A stretch of 64,000 nt of DNA from Psilocybe cubensis (GCA_017499595.2 CM039007.1:2976001-3040000), one strand, 5' to 3'; positions 29,320 to 64,000 are shown, counted from the first letter of the stretch. Translations and numbers: made by a program. The notes: generated by a model not told the origin, from the sequence alone.

Positions 29320-29887
29320 GTCCATAATTGATTGTATTGCGCATATGAAAATTAAAACATACATTGATCTAAAAAACACTCTCTTGCAATCTTTGTAAGG
29401 ACAAAGAGACGGAGGAGACATGAACACAATGCATATTGTGGGTGACATAGGAGGTGGTGTTTTTCAAGAGTAAAAATGATGTTCTTATTGCAGAAACCAT
29501 TTTGCTAGCTTAAGATAATGGAGGAAGAGGTAGCGAGAGGTAACCGATGAGAAATGGGGCAAACACCAATACAGGACGGAGAAGACAAGCACAAGATTGA
29601 AATAAAGAACTGAATTTCTTCACCCTTGCGCGGAACTCGGCTGCTCAACCCTGACAAAGAGCATATCACATCACAGGAAATAACAACAACGATGGAAATC
29701 GCAAGCGAGGAAGCTAAGCTTATTCCCCCCCGAAGGGGGGGCCTTCGTTGCATTGGGTCTCCTGTTCAGAATTCCAGAAATCTGATGCCAGATTCGGATT
29801 CCTGGACCCCAAAAACCCCCAAATACACTTTCAAAATATTTTATTTTGTACATACGGAGGTGCTACGTAATTAAATGTGTAATTTAT

Positions 29888-30101
29888 GGAGGCCGGCCTC
29901 CAAATTGATGGAGGCCACTGGAGGCCGGCCTCCAAATTGATGGAGGCCACTGGAGGCCGGCCTCCAAATTGATGGAGGCCACTGGAGGCCGGCCTCCAAA
30001 TTGATGGAGGTCACTGGAGGCCGGCCTCCGTCTAAAAATAAATGCGTCGAGGCCACCAGAGGCCGGCCTCGATTCGTACGCGCGAGTGGAGGCCGGCCTC
30101 C
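29888..30101. repeat. Subterminal 32-bp tandem repeat containing the palindrome GGAGGCCGGCCTCC
   Basis: Unit ggaggccggcctccaaattgatggaggccact starts at 29888, 29920, 29952, 29984 and (partial) 30016, with further palindrome copies to about 30101. Confidence 0.95.
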
Positions 30102-33100: not shown

Positions 33101-33890
33101 ATATCTTCCGTACAATCGAGAATAACACCCCTGTAAAGATGTAATGTATCAAGGTATGCGCAATGGTATGAATGCATCACGGGCTCATTATAGCTGGAAA
33201 CTAGAGAGCTGATTCAGAGTGCTGAGAGATGTAAGCAAACCATCTTCCAGGACCAAAAAGCCGTTCACAGCAGGTGTCCCAGGGTCTCGTTGCTCAGTTC
33301 CGTGAGCTTCCAACTCTCGTTACCGACCAATCTGAGCAATCTAGACTAGCCTATTCCTGGAAGCGAGATAAATGAGATGATTTAAACGCGGAGTAATTAT
33401 GAATTGGGGCACGAGGAGAGCGTTTGCGCCATGGTTGACATACCATGCTACACTGGGGATACATTGTAATAGAGGTGAAATGTTACCGTAAATCACCTCT
33501 TCAATATTCACATGGAGGTCATGGCACGTCTACATAACCAAAACGTTAGATAACAAATGTGGTACGTCAGAGTACTCACCTTGACATTGCTGTAAAGATA
33601 TGGTTTCGGGCATACTCAAATCTAGCGACTCCTGAATCCCCAATGCACTAGTCCATTTCATTCAAAGCCAAAGAGTATGGACAGGCAAGACGAGATGTTT
33701 TGGTCCAGTGGGACACTGCAGGCCTGCATTTGAATAAAGTGAAAAGTTTCAAACACTTTTGAGTGAGTCTGTGAGATTAATGGCAACAAGAATTCAAAGA
33801 ACCTACTGGTATAAATATATCCAACACTACTCGCAAAGTTGAAACCCCGCTGGTGTTGTCGTGAATACACCACAAAACACATTTTAGCCT

Positions 33891-34075
33891 TGGTTGGGGT
33901 TAGGGATTAGGGTTGGTGGTGACCACAAAAATACAGATTAGGATGGTTTAGGGTTTAGTTTTTAGGGTTGGTTGGGATTCGATATACCACAAAAGCACAG
34001 ATTAGTCCGGTTAGGGTTGGTTAGCATTGGTTAGGGTTGGTAATTACAATTAAATATTTAGCTGGTTAGGATTGG
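33891..34075 (+). repeat. Degenerate interstitial telomere-like TTAGGG cluster (also about 61668-61852)
   Basis: Six perfect TTAGGG plus TTAGG/TTGG variants in about 180 bp. Confidence 0.6.
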
Positions 34076-39050: not shown

Positions 39051-39054
39051 AGCG

Positions 39055-43065: not shown

Positions 43066-43199
43066 TCCCAGCACACTTGTGCGACGAGCATACGTGTATA
43101 CTGTACATATATGCGCGCGTCAGTCGGTCGGTCGGTCGATGTCGATCTATACGTTTATATAGTTGTTAAAGGTCTCATTACTCCGTTTTTGTGTATATA

Positions 43200-43850: not shown

Positions 43851-45319
43851 GTATCGGATGTATAGACGTACGACTTCAGCTTCAGGCTTCAGGAGTTTAA
43901 CATCGAAGCACTATTATAAGCGCGCGCACGGTTTGGACGAGGTAATTCGTACGGATATGAGTGGTTGGTAGAGTTGCTAGATTTTGTTTAGCGGCCGGAT
44001 AAGCTTGGAGAGCATTTAACGGTCTATCCGTCAATGATATGGGTCTTTTCAGGATCATGTAAACGTTTTGATATACTGATTCAGATACACACTGTAGGGA
44101 TATTTCCATGACACATATAGCCCTTCTAATAGTGCTCCAAGTGGTGTAGCGAGTAAACTGCTTTTGTATCTTACTTTACGTGGAAAGACAGAAATGCATG
44201 CGGGCTATGAGGTGGTAAAATGGTACTTCTTCGGGTGACGGAATGGAATGGAGGATGGTCGAAGAGATACTGTTTCCAAAGCAGATATAAAACCAAATAA
44301 AGGTTTTGAGAGTCAAGGCTAGGGTACAGAGATCTATGGGTTTTTCGGGTAGACGGATAATGGTCCCAATATAGGAATGCCCGTCGGTCCATCGGCCGCC
44401 CCCGAGACCTGCTCAACTCGGGTGCTCCGATGGGACTTTCGACTCCCTCGCAGCTGTGACGTGGTGCCCGTTGCCGGTCATTGATCTCACTGGTCCGGGT
44501 GGTCTCAAGCCAGTTGTTGTTTATCCAGGTTTTTACTGTAAGAAAGCTGTTTGTGTGTACATATAGATTATTACACGCGATTGGCAAGTCTTTCCACCTC
44601 TACACGTAGCTGTTGAAATGTCTGTGCTTCGCGTGCAATGACGTTGGAGCGAGCAGGCGAAGGCCTGGACAGCGTATTAACTCGGGCGACTAGAGTGTTG
44701 ATTCCGGTGTAGGCGCGGAAGAGGCGGCCGTTGATTTCCCTCAGTCTAACCTCCACCTCTGATTCCTGCCTCCGTGCCTCCGCTATCAAGCGTCACGAGC
44801 ATCCTGAACGCGTGGCCTAGTACAATCCGACCCCCATCGCTGTCTTCGGTGTCCTCGTCTTCGGACGTGTCTGTAGTTGCGTCAGACGCCTCCCATGGTG
44901 GGGGAGACCAGTATTGCGCGCCCGCGGTTGCTATTCATAGGGAATGAGGAGATGACCGCACGAGCAGGCATTGGTGTCGTATAGTGTAGCCTTGTCCCTT
45001 GGGTATGCCTCTTCAACCCTAGGCTTATTCCCCCCCGAAGGGGGGGCCTTCGTTGCATTGGGCCTCCTGTTCAGAATTCCTGAAATCTGATGCCAGATTC
45101 GGATTCCTGGACCCCAAAAACCCCCAAATACACTTTCAAAATATTTTATTTTGTACATACGGAGGTGCTACGTAATTAAATGTGTAATTTATGGAGGCCG
45201 GCCTCCAAATTGATGGAGGCCACTGGAGGCCGGCCTCCGTCTAAAAATAACTTTTGACAGGCACTGGAGGCCGGCCTCCGTCTAAAAATAAATTTTTGAC
45301 AGGCACTGGAGGCCGGCCT

Positions 45320-46610
45320 CCCGCCTGTCTCCCGATGCCAGCGCTCGCCGTCCCAAAGCTTGCGCTCGCCGTCCCAACGCCAGCGCTCGCCGTCCCAAAG
45401 CTTGCGCTCGCCGTCCCAACGCCAGCGCTCGCCGTCCCAACGCTTGCGCTCGCCGTCTGCCCGACGCCTGCGCTTGCCGCTGCATGTTGTTGCGCTGCCA
45501 CCTCCGGGCCGCTGCTGCTGCCGCCACCTCCACTCGACGCCTGTCGTTCAGCCGTCACCGCGTGTCATCCCGCCGTCGCCGCCTGTCGTCACGACGTCAC
45601 CGCGCGTCATCCCGCCGTCGCGTCTAGTCGCCGCCCACCACAACACGCACTCTGCTGCGTGTTGTTGCGCCGCCACACCCGTGCCGCTGCTGCTGCTGCC
45701 GCCTCTCCTCGTCCCCTGTCATGCCGCTGCCGCCTTCCCTCGCCGCCTGTCATTCCGCCGTCAGCGCGTGTCGTCCCGCCGTCGCCGCCTGTCGTCCCGC
45801 CTTCGCGTCCACTCGCCGCCCACCACAACACGCACTCTGCTGCGTGTTGTTGCGCCGTCACACCGGACCGCCGCTGCCACTGCCGCCTTCCCTCGCCGCC
45901 TGTCATTCCGCCGTCAGCGCGTGACGTCCCGCCGTCGCCGTCTGTCGTTCAGCCGTCACCGCGTGTCATCCCGTCGTCGCCGCCTGTCGTCACGACGTCA
46001 CCGCGCGTCGTCCCGCCGTCGCGTCTAGTCGCCGCCCACCACAACACGCACTCTGCTGCGTGTTGTTGCGCCGTCACACCGGACCGCCGCTGCCGCTGCC
46101 GCCTGCCTCGCCGCCTGTCATTCCGCTGTCAACGCCTGTCGTCCCGCCGTCGCCGCCTGTCGTCCCGCCGTCGCCGCCTGTCGTCACGACGTCACCGCGC
46201 GTCGTCCCGCCGTCGCGTCTAGTCGCCGCCCACCACGACACACACTCTGCTGCGTGTTGTTGCGCCGCCACACCGGGCCGCCGCTGCCGCTGCCGCCTGC
46301 CTCGCCGCCTGTCATTCCGCTGTCAACGCCTGTCGTCCCGCCGTCGCCGCCTGTCGTCCCGCCGTCGCCGCCTGTCGTCCCGCCGTCGCCGCCTGTCGTC
46401 ACAACGTCACCGCGCGTCGTCCCGCCGTCGCGTCCACTCGCCGCCCACCACGACACGCACTCTGCTGCGTGTTGTTGCGCCGCCACACCGGGCCGCCGCT
46501 GCCACTGCCGCCTCCCCTCCCCGCCTGTCATTCCGCCGTCGCCGCCTGTCGTCCCGCCGTCGCCGCCTGTCGCTGCCGCCGCGCTGCCTCTACTCGCCTC
46601 CTGTCGCTGC
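45320..46610. repeat. GC-rich nested 21-bp and roughly 190-210-bp tandem repeats
   Basis: Units gccagcgctcgccgtcccaa(a/c) and ccgtcgccgcctgtcgtcccg, with a recurring block ccac(a/g)acac(g/a)cactctgctgcgtgttgttgcgccg. Confidence 0.9.
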
Positions 46611-46851
46611 CATTTCGCTGTTTTGTCTTTGATACACCTCGGCCTTGCTGTACTGTAATTTTGTTAGATTTTTTATAACTAGTCATCTTACCCTGATATC
46701 AACTTGTATATATCTCACGCGAGCTCTCTTGTGTAGACACCAAAAAATAAATTTATATGACATTTTGAACAAAAAAACACGCATATATCTACATATTTTT
46801 GTTAGAATGGGCTATTCTTAAAATGAAAAAACACTTACATTGACAATGTAA

Positions 46852-49800
46852 CTACAGGCCTGGGCGAACACGATAAGTTGGCACCACCGGTACGTGCCCG
46901 TTGACAAAGGCCTGAGCTCGTTGAGACGCTGCCGCCAGAAGCTTCCTACTGGGAGGAGTGCCGCGCAATATTGATTTCCATTGCACTCTTGTTAATGGCT
47001 GGGCCTGCCGAGTGCGGATGTCTTCTACGCGTTCACGGTACCATGCCTCGTTGGCAGGCGTCCATTCCACCCATTGTGATCCGTTCATGCTGGGGGGCAC
47101 CTGCCACAGGTTCGGGGGAGGGAACCACGATTTTACAGTTATTTGACCTTTAGTAGCTGAGAAAAATGTTGTTAGTGCATAAAATTGAGAATAAACAAGG
47201 AAAACATACCTGTGTACAGCGTGTAGGTGCCGCATATAATGGACAGCTCGTTCTCCGTGAGCTGGTCGTTGCAATAACACCAAGTCGTGTCGCCAGCTGG
47301 CACGATGAACCCCTGCCGGTTCTGAATGATTTCCTTAGAGGGGCCAGCCAGCCCATCGTCGACGCTCAGAAACTCACTGGCTATCCTACCCACCAATCCA
47401 CCCCTCAGCAAGGCAGCCCGACCGTGTTGTTGGTGTTTGATGATGTTCTCGCATTGCAATCGGTATGCTTCGAAGTCATCAACGCCAAATTTGTACGCTG
47501 ACGGGCGGACAGATCGAGGGGTGTATGGCTCCTGGACAGTGGAGCAGCGACCCGACATTTCAATGCCCATGAGAGTGCGACAGGGCACACCTCTCTCCAG
47601 CAGCATTTTTGTCAGGGAGTCGATGGGAGCCCAGGAGTGCTCTAACCTGAGCCGACACACGTAAAGGGCGATCTCTGCCGTTTCAACACCCAACATCCAC
47701 TCGTGTTCCTCTGAACGAGGTTCTGAAAAAACAAACAGATTTTCATGGGGGCGGTGTATTTGCGAGAGGTCCAGCAGACGAGACAGGGATGTCAGGCTGT
47801 GCGTGTTGAGGTCAGAGAGGGCGGCCGGCATTTCTGTGCTTGTGGGTTCAATGCAAGCCAGATAAAACTGTTTGATGTGTTGTCGAGCGTCCAGGGTAAC
47901 TTCTGGGGTAAGTAACTCTGTAAACCCAAAGGTTTCGACCAGTTCATCCCAGTCTGCAGCGGCACAGGGCGTCGTCGTTGTGCCAGGGAGGTAGCCGTAA
48001 GATTGGCGCAGGCATCTGACCATATCGTTGTCGGGTGTAATGGGCTGGGGTTGCACAACATCCGTGGCGGGCGCGTCCATGGTCATCTCAACATCCGCAT
48101 TTTCATCCTCAACAGATGGGCCTGGTTCCTCCATCTCGAAATCTTCGACGACGGCAGGGGGGCTCTGTTGGACCCGCGACTCGCTCTCTGGGGAACGACG
48201 TGCTCGTGGGCGAGAGCGCGTTGCAACCTCTGGGGGTGTTGGCGAGCGACTGCGCAGGCGCCGTCCTAGCGTGGGCCGTGGGGGTGTTGTGGGTGCGCGG
48301 CGGGGTCTATCTCGCGATGACGAGGGTGTCGGAACCTCAATGACAGGCGGGTTGTTTGGAGGCAAAGGGGGTGGGGAAGGATTACGAGCGGGGGGAAGGG
48401 CCGACGTTGAGGCCACCGGCGCATCGGGGTCAGGTTCAATGGTGTCGTACCAGGGTACGCCTTCCCACTCTTCCTCGGCAGGTGCTGGTTTCGGGTGCTG
48501 CCTGGGTTGTTTTGCGGGACGTACACCTCTACCGCGGCGATGCTGGCCTCTAGCAGGCCTTGTCTGTGCCTGAATGCACTGGTCCAACATCGCGGATGCG
48601 CCTGCCAACTCGGCTGGTGGTTCCAAATCTCGACAGAGATCCCATTCGTCTGTCACACCGTTGTAGACCTTGCGGTGTGGGCGAAGTTTGGCCTCCTCGA
48701 TGCTGTTTCGTGACGTTGCGATGTGTTCGCGCATGTAAACGCTGGCTCCCTCTGTGGACACCAGCGTTTTCCAGACAAATACTTTGCTACGTACCACCGA
48801 TGGGTTGTTCTCTCGGTTCAGGCGAGCCTGTCTAGCTTCTGGCGTCTCTTTGGCCAGAATCCGTCGCCGTTCTTCCACCCTTGCAGCCCAGTAAGCGTCC
48901 CAGTCATCGTGCACAGAGGTCAGCAGCTTGTGGTTTTCATTCGCCAGTTCGATCATGCGCAGCGTAGGCAGGTTGGCGCTGTCAATGGCGAGCTGACGCT
49001 GTTCCTCGTCTCTCTTTTGGAGCTTTTTTTCCAATTCTTCATATGGCTGGGACATGTGCTGATCCAATGCCTCTGAGTTGTGGGCGAAATCGTTACTGAG
49101 GATAGAATACACCAAAGTAGTGGAGTACTCATCTCCCAGCGACTTCATCGTGAGGCCCTCCGTCGAATGAGATTTATTAAAAAATTTGCGCGCAAAGGCG
49201 GCTGCGAGAGACACGTCCATAGACTTGAACAGGTCGGTAAGTGTTGCCGCCAACAAGTCGCGCGGGGGGCGAAGCTCGAGATTGAGTATTTTGTGGGTGA
49301 GGAAGATTTCCTCTTCCCGCATCCGCCACGGATAATAGACTGGAACATGGTGTTCCAGAAGCCATTCGATGGGAGGGCGTGTCGCGTGGGTGCTGCTCAA
49401 CTCGTAGACCATGCCGACACGAGGGGTTCTGGCGTTAAACGAAAATACGTTGGAATGATACAAGCCATCCAGCCATACTTCTGAGATGTCAGGATGCTCA
49501 GCGCGGAGGCGTTCATGCCATGCAGGGACGGGGCTTTTGGGATCGTGCTTGATGTGCTTTGAATAGATCTCGCGACGACTTTGGGCGACGAGATACGACA
49601 GGTAGCCCATCCACAGGATAAACGCGTTTCGGGTGGCCTCAAAGCTCCTTTGCGCGTCTGCTTCAGAGCTATACCTGAGATCATAACCGAAGCTTTTGGG
49701 GCTAGGAGGTGGGGTTCCAGGAACGCGACACCATAAGCGGATCTTTTCGCACAGAAGGGTGATGTTTTCATCCAATTGGCGCCATTCTTTTACGCTGTGC

Positions 49801-50192
49801 CACTCCATTTCATACGTGGCCGGAGACTTGTGCGGTTTATTGCGCAAAATCTTTGGAGACCAGCACAAAAAATTAAACGGCAAGGACACGAATGATGGCG
49901 CCAAGGGTATGAAGGCGATCCACCCGTACTGATCGTGCCAGCGCACTGGCTGTTTGACGCCCTCTAAATCCAGGTCTCGTCGCCGAGGTTCTGCTCGTGT
50001 CGCCTTTTGTTCGAAGGGGTTGGTGACGTCGACCTCAGCGGGTGGGATGATGACGACACGCTTGCAGTTGGGGGACACGTATATGGTGCCCTTCTGGACA
50101 AACGCGGACCCTTGGGCCCAATCGATGTGGGTTTGCTGGGACATCTGCAGCAGAGTAAGTAACAAGCATATGTGGGCAACGAACGTGAACAC
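46852..50192 (-). CDS. Large protein of unknown function (over 1000 aa), element-associated
   Basis: 1006-codon open frame plus a spliced last exon (YT|ATKGQITVKSWFPPP..WTPANEAWY). Trp-rich N- and C-terminal blocks (GWIAFIP, WLDGL, GRAALLRGGLVGRIA, LTENELSIICGTY) flank a Pro/Arg-rich linker. True start uncertain. Confidence 0.85.
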
Positions 50193-50208
50193 TTACGGTG
50201 GGGGCAGA

Positions 50209-51530
50209 GCAGAACGGTTAGGACGATGGCGATGGCCTTAGATGACTGCAGAAGAGCTTCTGCAGTCGCCTCAGATTGCTACAGAAGATCTTCTGTAGTT
50301 TTCAGAGGTCGGGGGTGTTGGTGTCGGCGACGCGTCTGGCAACAAGGGCGGAGGAGAGAGCGAGGGTGGCTACAAGCAGAACGGTTGGGATGGTGTCAAT
50401 GGCCTTAGATGCCTGCAGAAGAGCTTCTGCAGTCGCCTCAGATCGCTACAGAAGATCTTCTGTAGTTCTCAGAGGTCGGGGCCGTGGGTGTCGGTGGACG
50501 CGTTTGGAAACAAGGGCGGAGGAAAGAGCGAGGGCGGCTACAGAAGAGCTTCTGAAGCCTATCTCGGATGGCACACGCGAAGTCGAAAATGGGGGTGGAG
50601 GGAAGAACGAGGCTGGCTACAGAAGAGCTTCTGTAACGATTCTCGGACGGCTGACGTGAAGTGTCAAACGTCGGGGCAGGGAAGAGCCAGAGTGGCTACA
50701 GAAGAGCTTCTGTAACCTTTCTGGGATGGCAGACGCGGCGTGCTACAGAAGAGCTTCTGTAGTGTGCGTGCGTGCTAAAGAAGGAAGTGGACTTAGCGTT
50801 GGAATGTTGAAAAAACGCCCAGAGCGGAGTTTCAATTAATCACGTGACCGCTCGCGGGCCCTGTTGATCGCAACCCCAGAGTGTTCCTGTTCTCCATCCA
50901 CCTCCAAAGCTCTTTGGTCGTGGATCGTGGGCGAACAGTACCAAAGCTCTTTGGTACTAGTTAGTCCATCCTTCTCCGTGTCGCACCCCCCCTCACGGTG
51001 CTCTGATCCTCAAGAGATCTCAGGTTCTATCCACCTCCAAAGCTCTTTGGTCGTGGATCGTGGGCCAACAGTACCAAAGCTCTTTGGTACTGGTTAGTCC
51101 ATCCTTCTCCGTGTCGCACCCCCCCTCACGGCATTTCGATCTTCAAGAGATAGCGGGTTCTGTCCACCTCCAAAGCTCTTTGGTCGTGGATCGTGGGCCG
51201 TCAGTACCAAAGCTCTTTGGTACTGCCTTGTCCATCCTTCTCCGTGTCGCACCACCCCTCACGGTGCTTCGATCTTCAAGAGCTCGCTCCTGCCAATGCC
51301 CCCCCACATATCCATCCGCCTCCAGAGCTCTCTGGTCGTGGTTCCCCCCAATGCTGCAAACCAAAGCTCTTTGGTTTGACTCCACTTCGTCCAACGATTC
51401 CGTCGGCCTGGGATACGTGTGCCAGTCGACCTCCTACCTTGATTCTGTGATTGTGAGTCGATATACCCGCCTCCAGAGATCTCTGGTCGTGGGCTGTCGC
51501 GTTATTGTGCAACCAGAGCTCTCTGGTTTG
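50209..51530. repeat. Intergenic array of short inverted-repeat motifs within ~167-bp and 133-bp tandem units
   Basis: Eight CAGAAG-A(G/T)-CTTCTG motifs at 50246-50762. Ten CCA(A/G)AG-(C/A)T-CT(T/C)TGG motifs at 50904-51528. 133-bp units start at 50897, 51030 and 51163. Confidence 0.9.
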
Positions 51531-52071
51531 TGCGCGTTACACACGACCTGGCCTCCCGATATGCTTGCGCACAACGCCTTGCCGCCGTCGATTGTGTCGG
51601 GCGCGATTTTTGATTGGGACGCCTTCGGACTGTCGTGCACTCCGGCGTCTGATTAATTCAGCCCTTTCCTCTTATCGGAACGACAGTCAATTAACTATCG
51701 ATCTCTTCTTTACACCCCTATACGTCTTCTGGAGGGCAAATATTCTCGCCTTCCATCGCAGAGCGTAGGGCGTCGTTCTCAGATATAGACCCCTTCCACC
51801 CCCAGCGTCGTTAGTGGGCCTAACCTGTTCCCTTCCCTCACCCAGACACCAAACTTCCAAGCATTTTCCAACAAAAAACGGGGATGGAAGGTCAGTAGGG
51901 TGTTTTATAGCGGTTACATGTACTAACCGTTTGATTCCAGATCCATCTGAACCAGCGAAGCGACGCAGGAGGGAAACAGAAGACGATGGTGGACGTGAAG
52001 GGCGTGCGAGGCGAAAAGATAACCAGCGATCGGTCACAGTAGGCGATACAGTCGTGCCACGCAACGCCGAC

Positions 52072-55000
52072 ATGAAATTTCCGTGCACACACTGCCGCAA
52101 GGAGTACAGTACGCCCTACAGTTTACAGGTGAGCCAGTTTCCAATGTGTTTTGATTTTTCACGCTAAATCCATACTACAGCGTCACTTTGCTGATTCGCA
52201 CGCAGAACCGTCGTTGGAGGTTCCCCAGCAGACCTCAGACAACGAGCGATCGTTATCTCCACCGTCGCCGGAGCCCATGTTTCCATCGCAGCTCCCTCGC
52301 CCATCTTGGGGAGCCGCACCTCCTACAAGAGCCGCACCTCCCGCTTCACAGCTTCATCCGCCATCTACGCGCTTGTTTCTTATCCCGCACGCTCCCAGCA
52401 GGCAAGTGTTGCCGCGTCCCTTGGGCTCGAGGGCAGGATCGCCCCCAACAATGATTCCTGCGCCGGTAACACCTGCGGCGAGTCGGCCATCTACGCGCAC
52501 GTTTCTTGGCCCGCGCGCTATCAGCAGCCAGGGGTCGCCGCGTCCGTTGGTCTCGAGCCCAGGATCGCCCCCAACGATGATACCTGGGCCCGTTTCTCCT
52601 GCGCCACTGCGCAACGTATCTGCGCAGAGGATGACACCGACACCTCCGGGCATGCATCAGCCACCGCCTATTCGCGCCACGCCCACCACTGCGATGGAAG
52701 TAGATGTTTCGCTCTACGACATCGTACCCGATGACCACACAGTGATCTACGACAATGCGCACAATCTTCCGGCCCTTGGAATTGTTATCAACACTTTTCT
52801 CAAGATTGTTATCCGCATAGAATGTGGGGAAGCGATTGAGCCGGCGTCGGTGTGCGCACACGTCAAGCAGCACAATGCACACTATACACCAGGCCCCACA
52901 TTGCTCGAAGATCTTCGGCGGAAATACGGGATCGTGTCGCTGGCTGAGATAGCCTACAGCGCTGGACCAATCCGTCCGATTTTTGGGATTCCTATCGAGG
53001 CTGATCAGCTCCATTTTTGTTCCAAATGCCACCGCGGCTACAACTCGTTGTTGAGCCTGCGGGGTCACCAGTCTAACGGGCAGCGTTGCCAAGTGCCTAT
53101 CACGCAGCGCGCTTGCTACACGATGTACGGGCAGATACTTACAAAAGGCCCAAGCAAGCGGTATTTTCCAGTGGACACCTCTTGCCTCTCGCTTCGCCAG
53201 GACATTCCCTTTGCATACTCGACTGTTTTTGGAACAACAATGCCGCCTCCACCCGATTACACACAGTTGCCCGTCCAAGACATTGAGGACCCGCAAAATC
53301 TGTCCTCGTTTCTCTTCCGCGAAGGATGGCTTGACGCAGTGAAAGGGTTGACCCCTGTCGACATCCAGGAGGTTACCAGGCTACCAGACGCCAAGACCGA
53401 GCCATGGGGCAAACAACTCCAGCTCGCAGCCCATCGCGCACTGGCCAGTGTACAGCTACTGGTGAACGAACACCATACGTTCGGGATGACACATAATATT
53501 GCTCAGTTCAATCAATCGTGAGTTTATTTCCATTAAAACAACGCTGATATTAACCCCACACGGTAGAAGCAACATGTCGTCCAACAACTTCAACCACATT
53601 CAACCCAAGACGCAGCAGCGATACGGAAACATTATTGTGCGGCTTATTTTCAACGTTTTGCGCACCATGGACCCCGCGTGGACATCTCCCGTGCGCTACC
53701 CCTCTCTCGACGCATCTCAGAAAGTAATTTTGCTAGAGCTACGAGCCAAACTGGATGGCGCAGACAAAAAGCTCATCGACGAGGCATATCAGAAGGCGTG
53801 CTACTCATTATTTGCACACGAGCGACGCCAGTACCCGATCAGCTCTAAGCTGCGAAAATTCTTCTCGCCCGTCATCTTGTTCGTCGTTTTCTACTCTCTG
53901 CGCGCGAACGGGAGCTTCCGCTTGGCGTCAGAGATTACGGGCATATGCGCCGCCGTTGAATACTGCATTCGGACGACAATGCTCTTTGAAATCGAAAGGA
54001 TATCCGAAGAATCCAACGTTTCGTCATTCGAGTAAGTTCCTTACTTTTTTCATGTTCATTTGTTAATATATTGTTCCTAGCGCTCTCAAAAAGGTGGAAA
54101 GGTACATCTCAACGGGGCAGGAGACGCCAATGGCGTTTATTTACAATGTCCACCGTGTTCTCGCATCCGTGCGCTCAGACGAAGTCACCGCCTCCCAGTT
54201 TCGTTTCACGGACAAGAACGGAAGAGAGGTTAGCTGCAACGGCCACCTCATATCTCTATCGATGATCAAGAAAATGCACGACGAGGAGCATGTTCGGTAT
54301 GAGAACATGGTACAGGATCGTCTCTTTTTTGGCGAAGACATACCCAGCGATCTCTTCCCTGAACTCGACCTCGAGAGCATAGTCGACAGCGCCAACAATA
54401 CATCTGCTGGCTATTGCTTCCTGGACGACCCTCGCAACAATTTTTCTGCTTATCGGGACTCTTACGGACGTTGGTTGCTCTCCGACCCTGTGCGAGCCCA
54501 GCGTTTCGTTTATATGCATGAAGGCGAGCTCGTTTGGAAGCCTTCTGCCGCCCTTGACCTATTGCGGCGCATGGAACGCGTACGCGAGGTCCTAGCGCCG
54601 GGGGTTTCCTACTCGACTCTTCTGCAGGTTCGGGGGTCGGAATTTGCACGCGCGTTACTCAGGAACACACCCGCAGCCCTACGAAACCTGCGGTTTGAGA
54701 TGCACTTGCTGGCGCACGTTGCGTTGCAGGACAAGACATCGCATCTACATCTCAAGGATCGCCACATTCCTCACGTCATTACCCGCGAGTGGGCAGAGTC
54801 CCTCATCCGAAACCTTGCTGTATTTCGCCCGTTTGAAGAAGTTCTAGTGGCGAAATTCCTCAACCCCGAAGCACTTCATCGCTATCGCGTTCAGCTTTGG
54901 CCGGGCATCAAATCGACGATGACGTCTGAGGCATTCAGTGCTCGATGTGGCGACATGACAATGCGCTATCTCCTGCAGCCGTTCAAGCCTCTTCGCTGGC

Positions 55001-57494
55001 GCTCTCTGATCACGGCGTTTGCGCGTTTCTTGCCGGATTCTCGCTCATACGAGTCGCAAAAGGAGTTTTTTGTCGACACGGCCATGATGCACTCAACGGC
55101 GATGAGCAACAATCGATACGGGCGACATTCTGACCAGGCATTGCAGTCCGACTTTCGTACAACCATTGGGTGCATCCAGGCCGCTTTAGACATGCAGAAG
55201 CATGTTGGGATTGGACAGGCGCGTCCGTTTACGCTCACTGTACCGTCCGAGGTACCTGAGACTTCCACTGGCGGCGCTCAAGGTCAGTGGCATAACTAGA
55301 CCGCAATTTATGCGTTATTAATTTTTTTTTAGGAATTGTACACGACGTTAGCTCGCTGGAGCGCATAGCGCGGTCAGCTATGCTCGAAATCACAGGAAGT
55401 TTGGAGGATCGCGTGAAGGAGACCATCCTCGACTCTATGGCGGTCGTCATGGCGCAGATTTTGCCCAAGACACCTCGTCCGCTCAACGAGAACAACCTCC
55501 GCCCTGTTGCAGACATTGACCCCCACCCCTCGCGCCTACGCTCTCTGCGTCAATTCCTCAAGCGGCCTGCAGCGAACTTTAGCTGCCCCGAGCAGGCGCT
55601 CCTCCTGGAGCTCATGTGCCGCGGGCAGCAGAGCGTGCTGGGTATCTTGGGCACGGGCAAGGGAAAGACGATGCTAGTCTTTCTCTATGCTTATTTATTC
55701 GGGAGCTGTGGCATTACGGTTGTCATTCTTCCGCTGTCATCCCTCCGCATCGAGTACAGCCGGCGCGCACAAGAGCTGGGTATCTCCTCGTCAATCTGGA
55801 CGCCAACGGCGAAGCACAATTTGGACGTTCAGCTGCTGTGTGTCTCGATTGAGCACGTCAACTTTCACGACTTTGAGAGGTGCGTTACATGCCCAAGTAT
55901 TGATTTTAGTTATTGACTTGATTTTCAGTGATCTCGCGTCTTTAGAGCACCAGAAGCGTCTGAACTGCATCATCTTTGATGAAGTTCACAAGGTGGTCAC
56001 GGATATCACCTATCGGCCCTCGTTTGAGAAATTCTGGGTTCTCAACAAGGTAAAGGCGCCGATATATGGGCTTTCTGGATCTCTGCCTCCGTCGACAATG
56101 GCAGAGTTCAATCAGCTTACGGGTACCACATGGAAGGTCGTCCGTACGACTTCAAACCGACCTGAGCTCGCCTATAGGATCATCCACGTCACCGGCGACA
56201 TGCTGAAACGGCTCGTTGAAGATATCGCAACGTACATTGCGAATTATGGACCCCGCGATCGTCTAATGGTCTTTTGTCGCACCAAAGAAGATGTAACGGC
56301 GCTGTCCGACGCTCTTAGAGTGCCTGGTTTCACCTCGCACACCGCCGAAACCAACGACGACACGTTGCGAAAATGGCGCTCCGGTGAAAACATTGTCATT
56401 GTCGCCACAAGTATTCTGGGCTGTGGGCTCGACTACCCAAGCGTTCGCCATGTCCTACACTGGGGCATTGCGCACTCGATGGTTGATCAGCATCAGCAGG
56501 AGTCTCGCGCTGGCAGGGACGGGCAGCGTGCTGAAGCCATCACATACGTGGCTTCTCCTTCTCGTCGTTACTCCAAATCTGCGACCGCGCATGGCCTTTC
56601 AGAGCTCGAAAAATGGTCCTCGTCAACGGATATGTGTTTGCGGGCCATTCCTAGCTCGTATCTTGACGGCGTTCCCATCACATGCTCCTTGCTCCCGAAC
56701 TGTGAGCTTTGTGCCTACTGCTTGGAACAGATGCATCAGGCTCCGCCTCTGCGAGTGGCCTCGATCTCCCACCTCATCAGCGACCCAGTTTCTGTGCCAG
56801 CTAAGCCCCAAACAACCCCGATTCGCCCGCCATTCCGTGTTTTTGTCCCTCCAAAAACACCTATCACCCCCGTCATACAGTCTGGCGAGTCTACGCCTGC
56901 CTCGGCCGTTGATTTGACGTCAAGGTAAGTCTCCATGTTTGACTTGAAGTATTTTAACAACAATTATATTTCTAGTTCTGCTTTTTGCCAAGTTTCATCA
57001 CCATCGACTCTAGTTGCTGGGGCCAGCGACGACAGCGGGACCTTTGGTACCACAGCTGGCTCTCCAGTGTCCCCCACCTTCCACTCTGCGAAGCGCGTGC
57101 TTCCGGAAGACGACAACACGGCCAGTAAACGCTTGCGGCTGTCGGACCCAACCTCAGCACTTCGAGCAAAGCCCGCCACTGTTCCAGCCCAGCCTCGGGC
57201 GACAAACCGCGTGCTTCCGGAAGACAATAACACGACCAGTAAACGCTCGCGCCTGTCGAACCCACCGTCAGCATTTCAAGCCAAGGCCTCTACTGTCCCA
57301 GTCCAGCCTCGGGCGACGGTGGGTTTAGTAGCACGTATAGATCATGCCGCTGTTCAGGAGGCCGCCAAACGCTTTACTCTGGAGGTTAGACAGCCCATTA
57401 TAAACGCACTGAACCTGATCCGAGGAAAGTGCGTTATCTGCCTCATGCTTCATAGAGCGGACTGGGAGACCCACCACCATGACGACTGCCCTAA
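52072..57494 (+). CDS. C2H2 + DUF3505-like + putative tyrosine-recombinase domain + RecQ-like SF2 helicase (telomere-linked-helicase-like); 3' end interrupted
   Basis: CTHC..LQ|RHFADSH zinc finger; ECGEAI..CAHVKQH and CSKC; RGSE..DKT..WR..MHS..RYG; helicase motifs GTGKGKT, IIFDEVH, LSGSLPP, NRPEL, VFCRTK, ATSILGCGLD, QESRAGRDG and a Cys cluster. Frame runs into the element end at DDCP-K. Start may lie further upstream. Confidence 0.85.
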
Positions 57495-60400
57495 GCTTAT
57501 TCCCCCCCGAAGGGGGGGCCTTCGTTGCATTGGGTCTCCTGTTCAGAATTCCAGAAATCTGATGCCAGATTCGGATTCCTGGACCCCAAAAACCCCCAAA
57601 TACACTTTCAAAATATTTTATTTTGTACATACGGAGGTGCTACGTAATTAAATGTGTAATTTATGGAGGCCGGCCTCCAAATTGATGGAGGCCACTGGAG
57701 GCCGGCCTCCAAATTGATGGAGGCCACTGGAGGCCGGCCTCCAAATTGATGGAGGCCACTGGAGGCCGGCCTCCAAATTGATGGAGGTCACTGGAGGCCG
57801 GCCTCCGTCTAAAAATAAATGCGTCGAGGCCACCAGAGGCCGGCCTCGATTCGTACGCGCGAGTGGAGGCCGGCCTCCCGCCTGTCTCCCGACGCCTGCG
57901 CTCGCCGTCCCGATGCCTGCGCTCGCCGTCCCGACGCTTGCGCTTGCCGTCCCGACGCTTTCCCTTGCTACCTGCCCGACGTCATTGCACCGCCACCCCG
58001 GGCCGCTGCTGCCACCGCCGCCTCCACTCGACGCCTGTTGCTGCTGCCGTGCCGCCTTCCTACCAGTAACGTGCGGCGAGTTGTTTGTCCATGCTGTTGT
58101 CATTGCATTCAAACTCCGCCTTTTACCCTTACGCGCACCGCAGCGACGTGTTAACATATTATGCACTTCGTATCATTGTCACATCCAGCTCCACCCTCAC
58201 CCCACTGCTGTCATCCATGGCTCCTCTTCATCGGTTTAACACTGCAGCCGGAGGATGGTATAGCGAGGGTGGCAAAACACCCCACCCTCAACGCTGATGG
58301 GCTGTATGCGCATGTATCAGCCATGATGTTGACAAATACGGATTCAACGACAAGTGGCGTGTAGACGCAGCGTCTGGCGGGGCCCGTTGAGCAGTGGTGT
58401 TCTAGTGGGTATACAGGTGCTCGTGTGAGGGTGTGGAAAAGTGTATGATGGGTGTGTGTGCGTGTGTGGACATGAGTGAGTAAATATTGTCCTCCCCTCT
58501 ATCTCTCTTCACTAATCTCCACACTTTCCACCACCACCACCATCACCCGTTCGCCGACGCCTCGCTGAGAATCAGAATCACATACATATCTGTCCCAATC
58601 CCCACCCCTCAAAGCATGCTGTCGAAACAAGGTCCGAACAAGTGGCCCATGCCTCCTCCCGGCAGTGAGCGTGTCCATCTGATTGTGACTGGCACTCACC
58701 AATGACGCCGTCGAAGTGCATCTTCAACAGCGAACACGGGTCATTGATAGTCGAGGTCATTGTTTCGAGGGGTTTTCTGTGCGTCGGACACATCTGTCGT
58801 GGACTACTCACCTCTAGGCATCATACCACACAATGACCTGGCATTCAAGAAGACCCTGGGAGGAACAGACACGTCGGATTAGGTGAGTCAGTCAGCATGT
58901 TTGGTTTACTGTGACTTGGACTCAACCATAACAGCGCCCCGGCGCATCTTCACCAACGAGCGCGGTTGGTGATAGTCAAGGTGTCATTTGAAGGGTCTTG
59001 TGTGTTTCAAAGAGGCTTGCATGTGTCAACGTGGGATCGTCAATGTGAGTAGCTGGACATGTCTGTGCACGATTACTTACCTCCAATGGGTGTCAGACAA
59101 CACAGATGCCGCTGACTGGAAGAGACACGTTGGGATGAGGTGAGTGGGCACTTCTTATGACTGGGACTCACCAATGACGGTGGCACGGCACATTTGGGTG
59201 AAGTCATCGTCGTGTCGAGGGGCCTGTGTGGGTGTCAAGGTGAGTCGCTGGACGTGTCTGTGTTGGTTTGCTTACCTTGGGTCTTCACAGGTGATGACCT
59301 GGCATTCAAACAACAACAAAAAATCGTCAGTCGCAGCGGCAAACCCCCAGCTCACACGATGACGTTGGTTACCAGAGGACGCGGAGCGAAGAGGAGAAAA
59401 TTGGAGAGCAGAGAAAAAAGGGGGGAGACCCCCTGAGCTGGGCAGAAGAGGAGGAGCGGGATGAGAAAAAGTGAGTCGATTCACGGTCCCTTTTATAGTC
59501 CCCAAACACGCCGCTATATGTACGCCCACTACGCTATGCATTTTCGGGTTGTACCATGCTGTTTTCAGGGTTCAATTTTGGGATCAACAGATGATTTGAG
59601 GGCGAACCAAGCGTTAGCCGAGTGTATGTACACTGTGCTTCTGTGTTTTAGACTCCTGTATGTCTGTAGATTCCAAATAAATTTCTTTTCAAGTTTCTTT
59701 CAACATTCAGATTGTGTATTTCAAGTGAATTTCAATGTTTTGTGCGAGGTCAAATCAAACAGTTCTCAACGCGCCTGTAACTCTGTACTGGATACCATTC
59801 CTACTCCCATCGCGTTAGAAAGCTACGTACATTGTCATTTTCAATGGAAACAAACTAATTCATTCAATTCCAGGATATCCAACATCACCTTTCTGCTCAA
59901 ACTTTTTTTCAAGACGCCGCTAGACCTTACGTTGACAAAATATCACCCAAATAGTACCCTGACGACCTAATTTCCAGACGATTGAAACCGTGTTCTCTTG
60001 GAAGATTGGGACGGGGAAGGTGTGGTAGTGCCGTATCCCATTCATGCAGTCAAATTTCGCATCACCGTCCCCATGCAAACGCTTTCACACCCGCATATAA
60101 TCACCCATATCTTTTTATTATTCAATGCATTCACATTTTGTTGAGGTATAGGCGTTTTAGTGCGACTCCAAAGGCTTCAGAGTAGCTCAGGGAAGCCAGT
60201 AAAATGTACTTTGAGGCTACCGTATCGTGACTATGTCTTATATGACATCAAACACCGTAGGTGAAGGAAACAATGTGTATCATGGTTAGTATCTGAATCG
60301 ATTCTAGGACGGAGCATGGGCGCTTTGAAGATGATACGCGCTTTGCTATGGACTTCATTGACATCTACCATGGGTACACCTTATTTTTACCTTTCCTCAA

Positions 60401-63400
60401 CATGACTTCGTCTCAACGCGCGCGCGGGTCAAGGGAAGTTAGTGAGGTTTAAACGGGTAGGGGAATTGATGTTGGTGAGTGAGTTGTTTTTGGTCTCATG
60501 TTCTGGTAGATGGAATGGACGAACAGACGAGCGTACCATCACCCTTTGCTGGTATACACACTACCTCGGTGTTCACCTTCCATTGGCACATTGTGGTATG
60601 CATAACATAATCATTGTGGCCCAGCATGTGATCTATGTGTACATTGTGCGCATTTCACACAGTTGGTATGCCGCCTGCGTTGTTAGTCACTGCTATTATG
60701 GCTGATATCTATTTTTTGTGTATTCCAATTGCCTCGCACTTGGACTAGTTCTTGGATACATTGTCTAAACTTTAATTTCTCCATGGTTGATGTGTTTTTC
60801 ATACGTCTCTGTGTCGGCGCATTTGTATCAAATGTTAGCTAAAAATGTGTCTTACTGCCTAGTTGGGTTTAAATGTTATATCTTCCGTACAATCGAGAAT
60901 AACACCCCTGTAAAGATGTAATGTATCAAGGTATGCGCAATGGTATGAATGCATCACGGGCTCATTATAGCTGGAAACTAGAGAGCTGATTCAGAGTGCT
61001 GAGAGATGTAAGCAAACCATCTTCCAGGACCAAAAAGCCGTTCACAGCAGGTGTCCCAGGGTCTCGTTGCTCAGTTCCGTGAGCTTCCAACTCTCGTTAC
61101 CGACCAATCTGAGCAATCTAGACTAGCCTATTCCTGGAAGCGAGATAAATGAGATGATTTAAACGCGGAGTAATTATGAATTGGGGCACGAGGAGAGCGT
61201 TTGCGCCATGGTTGACATACCATGCTACACTGGGGATACATTGTAATAGAGGTGAAATGTTACCGTAAATCACCTCTTCAATATTCACATGGAGGTCATG
61301 GCACGTCTACATAACCAAAACGTTAGATAACAAATGTGGTACGTCAGAGTACTCACCTTGACATTGCTGTAAAGATATGGTTTCGGGCATACTCAAATCT
61401 AGCGACTCCTGAATCCCCAATGCACTAGTCCATTTCATTCAAAGCCAAAGAGTATGGACAGGCAAGACGAGATGTTTTGGTCCAGTGGGACACTGCAGGC
61501 CTGCATTTGAATAAAGTGAAAAGTTTCAAACACTTTTGAGTGAGTCTGTGAGATTAATGGCAACAAGAATTCAAAGAACCTACTGGTATAAATATATCCA
61601 ACACTACTCGCAAAGTTGAAACCCCGCTGGTGTTGTCGTGAATACACCACAAAACACATTTTAGCCTTGGTTGGGGTTAGGGATTAGGGTTGGTGGTGAC
61701 CACAAAAATACAGATTAGGATGGTTTAGGGTTTAGTTTTTAGGGTTGGTTGGGATTCGATATACCACAAAAGCACAGATTAGTCCGGTTAGGGTTGGTTA
61801 GCATTGGTTAGGGTTGGTAATTACAATTAAATATTTAGCTGGTTAGGATTGGATTCCACGTTCGGGTGGCAATACATGGTGTCTAATGTACTATAGCACC
61901 CATACTACGCAGCGAGGTTCTAGCAGACAAGAAGGTTGGGGATGTAGTTTAGATCATGAGGTCTTTGCATATTGTAGGCGAGTATGTATATTTGATGTTG
62001 AATTAGTAGGTAACATAGGTTATCGGATGGGGATGTAGCTAAACCCTATAATCCACACATGGAAGCAGGCCTGCATCCTTCTGTATACTTTCCTTCCATC
62101 GCAACACCCATCCAAACACCAAGGAAGGAGGTGGAAATAGAAGCGTCCACACAGCATCAAGGTCGTTATTAGCGAGTAACCCAGAGTCCGCATGGGCGAC
62201 TGCCAACTTTAATATATGGACATTAGCGGTTTGCGCATATGGCATATCGAGACGCCCTGCGCAGAGTTGACGCGGCACTGGGACAGGCACAGAGACGAGC
62301 GGGGGAGCTGTAAGTCATGAGTGGGTGGAGGGGGTCTGCAGCGGATTGTGCACGTATGACTTTTTGCAGCTAGTGTGTTGATGTTAATGTCGAAGTTGCC
62401 ATTGTGGTCATGAAGGGAGGTTGGGGGGGATGTATAAATTGTGTGTGTGTTTGGAGGCGGGTTTGCTTGAAAATGGTGCAAGAGTTGGGCAACAGTGTTG
62501 AGCTGGACACAGTTGGTTGTGGTTACGGAGTGGGATTAAGATAGGAGGATGGGAATACGCACGATTGAATGGTACCCATTACACTCGTATCATCCTCCTC
62601 TGTCTTCAGTCAATTTTGCTTGCGTCTTGTGAGTGTTGACTTATTGGTTGTCAAATTGGTGGCGGATGTATCCGGTATCCGTAGGAGAGGATCTGCGGGG
62701 GGTGGTTGTAAAAGGGGGAGTTGGTGAGGTTGTATATGGCGGGAGTCAGTGATTGTGACATTGTGGAGTAGACGGAGACGGATGTGATGGTAAATGTGGA
62801 AGTGTACGTACCATTAAAGCGTGATATGTAAATCGAGGAGGTGTCCGTCACCACTTCAGCTTGAGTATAGAGGCCGTTATTGAGCTGCTCCGCGGATATT
62901 CAGATGAGGGGCGGTGTGATATGGTTGCGGTAAGGAAGAAGACGGAGGAACTGGCCATGGCCGTGCTTTCGACATGCAGTGGCAGTAGGGAGAATGTGTC
63001 AAAGGGCAGTATTTGAAGTGCGGAGGCTTGACGAGGATTGGAGATAAGCCGCGTCTTCTGCTGCTGCTTCTAAAAGCCTCTCGGGACCCATTCTTGCACT
63101 TTCATAAAAGACGACATGGAGACGAGCGAGAGACGACCGTGAATCTTACAAGTCCGTCGATTGCTGCCAGCAAAACAAGGACAAATACGCGAGACACTCG
63201 TCACCTGTAACGCTTGCCCTTCTCCACGGAATGCGTTCACCCACCTTGCTCCAATACATCCCAAGAAGCGCAAGCCCATACTCCTAGTTAGGGGCTGTAT
63301 TACAATGAAAAACACGTATTCTAGGAAAAATGTTATTTGCAACAATGCACAATCTCGACAAACGTAAATGACACGCACCTGGAAGAAAATATCCAACCTA

Positions 63401-64000
63401 CCAACGATCTATGCAGACGTCAACGTCATCATTACAAGTCGCGAAAACGTCGTGGAATTGACGTAGAATCCGCACTCGATCCCCCGGGTACGTATGCTGC
63501 TTATTGCAAATACACTGGGTCTTCTGAAGTTGGTCTCATTTCCCAGACCTTCTAGGTCGTATATCGGAAGTCTAGTTGAGCCGAGTAGGTTCCTGCTAGT
63601 GCCCAAGAGGACCCGCAATGAAAGGAGACGTTGGAATTAGCTTGAAATTGCGAATTGCGCGAGGGGGAGGATGTGGATATGTACGTGAGTCGAAATTTTC
63701 GAGAAATTTTTCGTGATTGCGTGTTGGGATGGATGCTTTGAGTGTTGTAGGGTGTACTGCATAGTCGTATAATATATTACGGTTTGAAAACGCAGTATTC
63801 TTGTACTGCCTTCTGATTTGTATTGAGAGCGCGTTCGGGCGCTTAACGTTTTTCGACATGTCCAACTTTTCTCAATCTACTTTCACTCAAAATTCGTATT
63901 TTAACAGGTAGTATTAATACCATTTTATACCTCCAGTACCGTGTAAAAAAGAAGAGCAAGACAAGAACTTACTGAACGGTGTGGCTCAAGGTCAAGAGTG
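57495..64000. mobile_element. Large apparently non-autonomous element, copy C (runs off the window), inserted in the helicase gene
   Basis: Near-identical to 29718-36223; begins after CCTAA inside a coding exon. Confidence 0.9.

Follow-up and report, generated by a model that had tools for sequence, protein, structure and literature searches.

A repeated terminus in Psilocybe cubensis as the likely inner edge of a subtelomeric repeat unit with a RecQ-type helicase and a partner gene

A boundary element common to three units

The window analysed here, a stretch of 64,000 nucleotides of Psilocybe cubensis DNA (GCA_017499595.2 CM039007.1:2976001-3040000), contains three units, A, B and C, which open with the same sharp end at positions 29714, 45019 and 57491, respectively. 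These positions follow from a repeat-family search of the window, in which the 300-nt copies of the end form one repeat family (D4). Behind this end, B carries two long divergent genes, as the preliminary description had proposed: a minus-strand gene (gene 1) and, from 51940, a plus-strand gene for a helicase. By alignment and script, homology between the three copies starts at CTA[A/G]GCTTATTCCCCCCCGAAGGGGGGG, and the 20 nt to the left show no relation among A, B and C. The earlier claim of one terminus in three unrelated flanks is thereby upheld, with starts 4 nt to the left of the 29718, 45023 and 57495 then given. A script counts 3 mismatches within the first 220 nt, past which the copies vary in repeat number; the match of B to A and C extends for about 530-565 nt (78% overall), which agrees with the earlier observation that A and C resemble B over the first ~500 bp only.

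The anatomy of this boundary element was delineated by repeat search and alignment, complemented by motif searches for copy A (29714..30261, plus strand) and by reads for copy B (45019..45544, plus strand). In A, the sequence CTAAGC is followed by a C7-GAA-G7 hairpin, then by the 14-nt palindrome GGAGGCCGGCCTCC, present in six perfect copies and one degenerate copy, and finally by 21-nt repeats. Copy B starts with CTAGGC, directly preceded by AACC, and has the same hairpin and four copies of the palindrome, while copy C starts with CTAAGC right after ...TGCC, so that its junction reads CCCTAA. The palindrome arrays are confined to the three ends, with 18 matches in the window against 0.13 expected. 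The folding energy of the hairpin is ordinary compared to shuffled sequences (z -0.4 to -0.7), and a search of the end against plasmids returned no match.

Unit A (29714..36223, plus strand), which carries neither the helicase nor gene 1, has a near-identical twin in C (57491..64000, plus strand), a second A-type unit that runs past the window edge. An ungapped alignment of the two shows 8 differences over 6510 positions and reaches the end of the window, in accordance with the near identity over 6.5 kb reported before. Reads suggest that A and C have a common part up to about 36272, beyond which a two-copy region carries on from A to about 39.0-39.5 kb; of the loose end at 36272, a 14-nt piece does not occur in the window. 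Both units contain a degenerate TTAGGG-like tract (33880..34070 in A), whose plus strand is G-rich and which the reads show to be multicopy; in A, it lies ~4.2 kb to the right of the CTAA start. Unit A itself sits 15 kb proximal to B, and ORF Pfam scans and reads place a single-copy G-alpha gene (at 40.4-43.2 kb) in between.

What, then, could such a boundary have been? Its start motif, C(C)CTA[A/G]GC, keeps four bases of a C-strand telomere unit in A, six in C and seven of eight (7-8) in B, and the loose ends of raw reads are divided over two adjacent positions, with 104 reads at 45018 and 107 at 45019 (X11). These features would fit a linear DNA that was once capped by telomere repeats and joined to broken ends via eroded (CCCTAA)n, in which case the unit would be an end-healing cassette and the boundary a former physical DNA end. 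The orientation of the TTAGGG-like tract of A matches this idea. Moreover, in the part of the Magnaporthe oryzae account drawn on here (PMC1635262), the inner boundary likewise starts with the reverse complement of the telomere motif, CCTAACC, and diverges at its first or second cytosine, and TLH-containing regions of F. oxysporum are described with telomere repeats on both sides (10.1101/2024.02.27.582403, as far as drawn on here). However, one telomere unit is retained at most, with statistics that are post hoc, a terminal telomere on this arm would be expected to run the other way, the consensus of the read loose ends at the boundary is non-telomeric, and no extrachromosomal form was seen. 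As such, we consider a formerly linear DNA highly improbable.

The partner gene and the helicase

In unit B, a tandem-repeat block (45330..46611, plus strand) with periods of 21, 42 and about 194-215 nt separates the boundary element from the 3' end of gene 1, and gene models elsewhere in the genome extend into these same repeats. Gene 1 itself (46855..50144, minus strand), delineated by gene prediction and relatives, encodes 1079 aa in two exons (50144-47208 and 47169-46855), the first of which matches JR316_0011177 at 100% identity across 978 aa. Its family comprises 1495 cluster representatives, in which D778, D890, D959, D960 and E966 are near-invariant; PF28437 is a precomputed annotation on gene-1 relatives, and one paralog adjoins a Plavaka transposase. 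A profile search of the PDB yielded no match at E up to 1, Pfam assigned no DDE transposase family to the protein, and an Atlas search returned only rows with a score of 0.82, which is at chance level. Fold searches with the predicted structures (pLDDT 79 and 88), covering the whole protein and its C-domain, gave no match either (best Foldseek E 0.71 and 1.4), and with best VIA Z values of 4.8 and 4.5, no solved transposase, nuclease or recombinase was matched. Judging from these models, gene 1 would encode an orphan protein with a confidently predicted structure for which these searches gave no solved counterpart, where the lack of a match does not amount to a new fold.

Between the two genes lies a divergent intergenic region (50145..51939, assigned to neither strand) with tandem repeats of 167, 79 and 133 nt that bear palindromes, e.g. 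CTACAGAAGA(G/T)CTTCTGTAG. It is followed by the helicase gene (51940..57490, plus strand), which has several exons and was delineated by Pfam, relatives and PDB matches. By sequence, its product is a telomere-linked (TLH/tlh1) RecQ-type helicase of superfamily SF2. Pfam recognizes DEAD and Helicase_C, the helicase core occupies residues about 1150-1500 of the predicted protein P0168, the closest relatives carry the name 'ATP-dependent DNA helicase tlh1', and the top PDB relatives are RecQ1, BLM and RecQ (E 8.4e-20). Towards the N-terminus there are weak signals for zf-C2H2_4 (E 5.7e-4) and OrsD (E 0.013), both below the Pfam cut-offs, and Atlas features show a likeness to OrsD families at 0.85-0.88; these C2H2 and OrsD signals fit the make-up of TLH proteins as far as it is described in the account drawn on here (10.1101/2024.02.27.582403). 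A recombinase domain, such as the tyrosine recombinase of Crypton and Starship elements (e.g. DUF3435), was not found in the helicase by Pfam, even at E up to 5, and the Atlas feature score to DUF3435-bearing clusters (0.77-0.79) falls within the chance range. The idea that a 'recombinase-helicase' moves the element thus finds no support, the protein being a TLH/tlh1-type RecQ helicase with no detectable recombinase.

At 57490, the start of C interrupts the reading frame of the helicase, some 75 or more conserved residues short of its Cys-rich tail, and no other part of the window encodes what is missing. Because of this cut, the right end of B does not lie at 57494, and the proposed 12.5-kb autonomous form does not have its limit there.

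Transposon hallmarks, copy number and chromosome position

As the preliminary description had stated, the locus has no recognizable DDE transposase, reverse transcriptase or HUH Rep: Pfam found none of these families in sets of 12, 45 and 21 ORFs, together 78 scanned ORFs across the window, and none of the 78 encodes a RepHel (HUH Rep plus PIF1-type helicase). An inverted copy of the end, of its palindrome or of its hairpin occurs nowhere in the window, leaving the unit without the terminal inverted repeats (TIRs) of DDE cut-and-paste transposons (CACTA/Plavaka, KDZ, Academ). Furthermore, a second end of the unit was not found in the window, so there is no pair of flanks to compare for a target site duplication (TSD), and palindrome and hairpin are absent from the rest of the window, though the right end of A should fall inside it. 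At A, no joint skipping the unit appears among 15 listed of the 31 read joints. Without a second end, TIR, TSD or empty site, transposition is therefore not demonstrated.

The lack of TIRs is shared with Helitrons, and read on the minus strand, the boundary does resemble a Helitron 3' end: the hairpin, with its 7-bp G/C stem, is followed by AATAAGC and then by CTAG in B or TTAG in A and C, which places it 11 nt before a CTRR-like end. This resemblance weighs against the subtelomeric reading preferred below. It would make the unit a Helitron-derived element on the minus strand, with the shared end as its 3' terminus and a RepHel elsewhere in the genome; the genes of B and the bodies of A and C would then be captured or read-through DNA. 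Different bodies behind one common end, arranged head-to-tail, are what rolling-circle read-through could leave, and in Botrytis cinerea all 14 of 14 subtelomeric TLH genes are flanked by an element called 'Helitron-like' in the part of the account drawn on here (10.1101/2022.03.07.483234). However, the window holds no Rep/HUH or PIF1 (SF1) helicase, the helicase present being RecQ (SF2); the putative 3' end is followed by G, G and C instead of the canonical T; A and C end in TTAG rather than CTRR; and, as noted, the hairpin energy is unexceptional. Taken together, we regard a Helitron origin as very unlikely.

Copy number can be estimated from the raw reads, in which the B-type end is present about 14 times at an identity of at least 95%. 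These copies join many different flanks, with a flank consensus agreement of only 0.42-0.45. The two genes are likewise found paired: in five of five NCBI helicase models (90% cluster), a gene-1-family model lies at accession +/-1, and the helicase of the window is 99-100% identical to the model adjoining JR316_0011177. The earlier proposal of an autonomous and non-autonomous family therefore stands in part, inasmuch as there is a multicopy family with one sharp end and a conserved two-gene module, next to a helicase-less form, duplicated recently, that has nothing but this end in common with it; the absence of a second end, TIR or empty site, and the apparent position of the copies at contig extremities, do not support it.

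A DNA transposon of a kind not yet described, conserved at one end and variable in its body, moved by gene 1 and the helicase, and with A and C as its non-autonomous partners as first suggested, would account for several of these observations. The end is sharp to the nucleotide in all three copies of the window and joins many flanks in the reads, the 14-nt palindromes are arrayed at the three ends only, as transposase-binding sites would be, and A and C are barely diverged. Moreover, the two-gene module is kept at five of five loci, and gene 1 belongs to a large family with near-invariant acidic residues and a paralog beside a transposase. Against this stand the missing second end and TIR, the lack of an A-skipping joint among the 15 of 31 read joints listed, and a gene 1 that matches no solved transposase, nuclease or recombinase structure. 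In addition, the copies are apparently confined to contig extremities, and the varying number of telomere-like bases at the boundary (4, 6 and 7-8) is unlike an enzyme-cut end. A transposon thus seems rather unlikely to us, and more of the anatomy is accounted for by subtelomeric spread through recombination.

Where do the copies lie? Going by protein identities, the window belongs to a contig of 3.08 Mb. In Psilocybe cubensis, locus tags go up as contigs get smaller, and two copies on one contig are 822 tags apart on a contig of 3.08 Mb and 889 apart on one of 3.34 Mb. Such spans take up roughly the whole contig, which would therefore have modules at both extremities; the same arithmetic puts one module at the start of a 3.52-Mb contig. 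We infer from these tags that the two-gene modules appear to lie at the extremities of chromosome-scale contigs. Some modules are array-like (tags 0011177/78 and 0011181/82), and a contig of 171,784 bp has three gene-1 copies, four tags apart.

Based on the above, the repeated terminus most likely forms the inner border of a repeat unit at chromosome ends that carries a telomere-linked RecQ helicase and a partner gene, and we favor, at somewhat better than even confidence, a unit similar to Y' that spreads by recombination. B would then be a subtelomeric TLH unit of Psilocybe cubensis, comparable to yeast Y' and to 'TLH region I' of Magnaporthe, with, from the centromere side, the boundary element, tandem repeats, gene 1 on the minus strand and the helicase directed toward the chromosome end, while A and C would be helicase-less units that share its boundary element. 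Homologous recombination, without a transposase, would carry the units from one chromosome end to another and build up local arrays, either through break-induced replication from eroded ends or through unequal exchange. The cut helicase tail at 57490 may be what a terminal truncation left behind, to which C and, past the window edge, a further two-gene module would successively have been added. The helicase probably has a role in end maintenance upon telomere failure, as judged by analogy to S. pombe tlh and to Y'-Help1 of yeast. Anatomy, copy number, gene families, pairing and truncation are observed here, while chromosome-end position, mode of spread and function are inferred.

Several observations sit uneasily with this subtelomeric reading. 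The position rests on locus-tag arithmetic, and the window shows no telomere repeat array, only two 12-mers with one mismatch, inside A and C. The junctions are free of the TTAGGG-oriented repeats expected of Y'-type arrays, the remnant being C-strand oriented, and with the single-copy G-alpha gene between A and B there is no continuous terminal array. Furthermore, a boundary at the same nucleotide next to many unrelated flanks looks like a transposon end, and recombination alone does not obviously yield it.

Known systems and the meaning of the locus

A mobile-element origin has long been suspected for the Y' elements of Saccharomyces cerevisiae. As far as they are described in PMC1635262, these are helicase-bearing (Y'-Help1) subtelomeric units of 5-12 kb with sharp ends, present at some chromosome ends and sometimes in tandem arrays, all of which is reminiscent of the locus studied here. 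Y' units are parted by TG1-3 tracts in telomere orientation, though, whereas here one telomere unit at most is found, in opposite orientation, and the gene content differs. Closer in anatomy is the TLH subtelomere of Magnaporthe oryzae, for which the same account describes a multicopy RecQ helicase gene with its 3' end facing the telomere, tandem-repeat blocks on its flanks and upstream of it, a palindrome in the boundary repeats, and some copies truncated within the ORF, as in Psilocybe cubensis. Unlike in what is described for M. oryzae, the helicase here is separated from the repeats by a second conserved gene, the divergently oriented gene 1, the boundary recurs in units that have no helicase, and a single-copy gene is located between units.

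Compared by description, Agaricus bisporus var. burnettii (PMC7473861) and Botrytis cinerea Vv3 (10.1101/2022.03.07.483234) also have many near-identical subtelomeric RecQ copies, complete and truncated. In both fungi, presence of the family depends on strain or variety, and in the latter (BcTLH) each copy is flanked by a Helitron-like repeat. In the portions of these two accounts drawn on here, TLH copies sit among genes of unknown function, and, unlike at the present locus, neither a conserved partner gene nor a nucleotide-level boundary is part of the description. At present, the locus mainly adds one more example to a known type of fungal subtelomere.

A bolder view is that TLH modules are a self-propagating two-gene selfish cassette, made up of the acidic-cluster orphan-fold protein and the RecQ helicase, that joins to broken or eroded chromosome ends via its hairpin end. 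The end that starts with a telomere-unit remnant would then be the recognized or physical DNA end, and unrelated DNA of the A/C type would sometimes be carried along. We deem this distinctly unlikely. If true, fungal TLH and Y'-like elements would form a class of their own within mobile DNA, one that targets ends, and gene 1 would have a catalytic role.

Telomere-linked helicase repeats are widespread in fungi, and the present locus offers three testable handles on how they spread and on what sets their sharp inner boundary: a boundary defined to the nucleotide, with hairpin, palindrome arrays and a telomere-unit remnant; a conserved partner gene from a family of about 1500 sequence clusters; and helicase-less units that share the boundary alone. 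Together, these could help decide between mobile DNA and recombination as the origin of Y'-like elements.

Three units with one left end

Three copies of a single 300-nt repeat family, located by a repeat search of the window at 29714, 45019 and 57491, open the units A (29714-36223), B (from 45019) and C (57491-64000). In the alignment, homology starts at CTA[A/G]GCTTATTCCCCCCCGAAGGGGGGG, and the sequence leftward of this point is unrelated among copies. As such, the repeat family, self-BLAST and alignment bear out the terminus with unrelated left flanks proposed in the preliminary description, which had the sites right but placed them 4 nt too far to the right. The near-identity of A and C over 6.5 kb likewise held, with 99.877% identity over 6510 nt, up to the window edge (self-BLAST), and eight mismatches without gaps (script). 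B matches both over ~565 nt at 78% (self-BLAST), and its first 220 nt differ from those of A by three mismatches (script).

Within the end, a hairpin is followed by the 14-nt perfect palindrome GGAGGCCGGCCTCC, and the palindromes by 21-nt repeats. With up to two mismatches allowed, the palindrome has 18 matches in the window against 0.13 expected, every one of them inside the three ends, to which the hairpin motif is also confined in a motif search of the window. The folding energy of the hairpin as DNA is no better than that of shuffles (z -0.4 to -0.7), and the repeat search returned no inverted copy of the end anywhere in the window. Beyond the 21-nt repeats, B carries a 1.3-kb tandem-repeat block with periods of 21, 42 and ~194-215 nt. 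The order of repeats followed by gene 1, the partner gene of the helicase in B, is conserved, since the gene models JR316_0010360 and JR316_0009465 at two other loci extend into the same tandem repeats.

Four read runs were mapped over 28200-45250, two of which, X11 and X12, are raw-read runs with single-copy flank depths of ~36 and ~30. The depth of its bin implies ~14 copies of the end of B, and read depth gives ~2.5 copies for A-type ends. Loose read ends pile up left of the end of B (X11, 104 at 45018 and 107 at 45019; X12, 104 at 45019); their consensus, which is non-telomeric, has an agreement of only 0.42-0.45, and this low agreement means many different flanks at this end. The 670 nt to its left (44348-45018) run at ~2x single-copy depth with a loose end at 44348, which means that the left flank of B recurs elsewhere, perhaps ahead of the next module of gene 1 and helicase. 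The body of A is covered at ~2x at 30.5-35.0 kb and nearer 1-1.5x at 35.0-36.2 kb; depth is ~2x again at 36.2-39.0 kb and back to 1x by ~39.5 kb. From loose ends at 36272 and 36164, the part common to A and C seems to stop just past the window end, and 36164-~39300 to be another repeat. In run X6, 36164-39300 has ~10 times the flank depth, so this stretch probably belongs to a repeat family of its own that borders on A or is inserted in it. None of the 15 joints listed of 31 skips A.

Directly left of A lies a NACHT/NPHP3_N NLR-type gene (26193-29243), present as three consecutive ORFs split by stops and either spliced or decayed. Farther left, the minus strand carries a HET-domain ORF (2418-3449) and a P450 fragment (22136-22684); such content is typical of variable regions. 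An inverted-repeat cluster, whose arms reach 286 nt and include a perfect 46-nt pair at 9665/10716, and a direct duplication (670 nt, 99.7% identity) occupy 8576-10768 and 15180-16511, and probably represent further small mobile elements.

A truncated helicase and its partner gene

Gene 2 of B is a multi-exon helicase gene on the plus strand from 51940, whose apparent in-frame stop is due to a GT...AG intron at ~56925-56975. Its relatives bear the name 'ATP-dependent DNA helicase tlh1', Pfam assigns DEAD and Helicase_C, and 74 solved-protein sequences match at E ≤0.001, the closest being RecQ1, BLM, E. coli RecQ, RecQ5 and WRN (E from 8.4e-20). The N-terminal 1150 aa give only C2H2 and OrsD signals, both sub-threshold in Pfam, and resemble OrsD families in the Atlas (0.85-0.88); the scores to DUF3435 clusters (0.77-0.79) are at the level of chance. 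What had been called a recombinase-helicase is instead a RecQ-type tlh1 helicase, with no recombinase found by Pfam and Atlas comparison.

Orthologs from Hypholoma and Crassisporium align with gene 2 throughout the C-terminal region to ...CVICLMLHRADWETHHHDDC, beyond which they run ~110 residues further, with a conserved Cys-rich tail that is also kept in Flammula and Gymnopilus relatives. In place of this tail, the window helicase frame enters the start of C, leaving gene 2 short of at least ~75 conserved residues that are encoded nowhere else in the window. B can thus not be taken as an autonomous form ending at 57494; therefore, either C interrupts B, or a truncated B had C joined on.

Gene 1 (50144-47208 and 47169-46855, minus strand) encodes 1079 aa, in which a Pfam version without PF28437 detects no family; PF28437 is a precomputed annotation on its relatives. 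An exhaustive HMMER search found 1495 cluster representatives at E ≤0.001, 149 of them at E ≤1e-30. Of eight relatives looked up, seven had an organism name, in each case that of a gilled mushroom (Psilocybe, Panaeolus, Hebeloma, Coprinellus, Flammula), and a Pfam scan of 20 relatives yielded WD40 in one and no family in 19. The AlphaFold model is a confident one (pLDDT 79 overall) with domains at 1-527 and 704-1076, and a C-domain homolog modelled alone reached pLDDT 87.8. Neither model matched a solved structure (best Foldseek E 0.71 and 1.4; best VIA-align Z 4.8, a helical bundle, and 4.5). The near-invariant residues D778, D890, D959, D960, E966, R831 and R920 hint, by conservation, at a candidate active site. 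Outside the window, a paralog of 35% identity is the immediate neighbour of a DUF6830-bearing Plavaka transposase gene, and in one gene model the two are fused; the helicase is therefore not the sole partner of the gene-1 family. The divergent promoter region between the two genes (50208-51291) holds tandem repeats of 167, 79 and 133 nt, in which 20-nt palindromes, CTACAGAAGA.CTTCTGTAG, look like putative repeated factor-binding sites.

Inferred chromosomal position, boundary and proposed mode of amplification

The window gene 1 is 100% identical to JR316_0011177 over 978 aa, and the helicase matches KAH9477259, the model next to it, at 99-100% identity. The two models lie on a 3,083,130-bp P. 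cubensis contig on which a second module (JR316_0011181/82) follows four tags on, past the right window edge. Each of the five NCBI helicase models in the 90% cluster is accompanied by a gene-1-family model under the next accession up or down (pairs 77258/59, 77262/63, 85929-30/31, 78126/25 and 79028/27); the cluster has three further members, namely a model present only in UniRef, a Logan fragment and a stray bacterial entry of 57 aa. A 171,784-bp contig carries three gene-1 copies spaced four tags. Locus tags go up while contig size goes down, and the distances between same-contig copies (822 tags at 3.08 Mb, 889 at 3.34 Mb), and between the first copies of the 3.52-Mb and 3.34-Mb contigs (985 tags), match whole contigs at ~3.6-3.8 kb per tag. 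From this arithmetic we infer that the modules sit at contig extremities, in which case the helicase would be transcribed toward the chromosome end.

Similar arrangements are described in earlier reports. In M. oryzae, most chromosome ends carry a TLH (telomere-linked RecQ-type helicase) gene flanked by tandem-repeat blocks, with its 3' end toward the telomere, some copies truncated within the ORF, and a 23-bp palindrome in one boundary repeat (PMC1635262). Its boundary and that of P. cubensis are a close parallel: the latter reads (AAC)C/CTAGGC in B, CC/CTAAGC in C and G/CTAAGC in A (slash, boundary), thereby keeping 7 of 8 bases of the C-strand telomere unit in B, 6 in C and 4 in A, and reads divide there between two adjacent cytosines. 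TLH regions of F. oxysporum are single or arrayed and have telomere repeats to either side, in many cases as one unit only (10.1101/2024.02.27.582403). Agaricus bisporus var. burnettii has 19 subtelomeric RecQ models that var. bisporus lacks (PMC7473861). In Botrytis cinerea Vv3, a 15.5-kb 'Helitron-like' element, with a helicase domain as the sole one recognised, flanks 14 of 14 subtelomeric TLH genes (10.1101/2022.03.07.483234).

We consider it fairly probable that the P. cubensis system is a subtelomeric TLH unit of the Y'-like kind, accompanied by a partner gene, and that recombination amplified it both between chromosome ends and within local arrays. The cut helicase would then be a healed truncation, and A and C would have arisen when a unit lacking the helicase was recently duplicated in place. 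Both contain a degenerate TTAGGG-like tract (33880-34070 in A, ~61657-61847 in C; variants GGTTAGGG, GATTAGGG and TTTAGGG), G-rich on the plus strand and of raised read depth, that may be left over from an interstitial telomere or earlier chromosome end.

What recombination leaves unexplained is why the boundary holds its position to one or two bases in all copies. A genuine transposon, one end of which is recognised, would address this exactness, and is an unlikely reading. So would an end derived from a Helitron, an origin that we find quite doubtful. On the minus strand the hairpin stands 11 nt ahead of CTAG, but no RepHel was found in the window, the flanking base does not fit, and TTAG replaces CTAG in A and C. 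A former telomere-capped DNA end would also address the exactness, and we regard it as highly improbable.

A literature search of limited coverage found no Psilocybe paper on such a TLH system. The subtelomeric TLH unit that we favour is a type of system already known. New are its partner gene, which is conserved and has an orphan fold, the description of the boundary to the nucleotide in an agaricomycete, and the presence of this boundary on units that lack the helicase.
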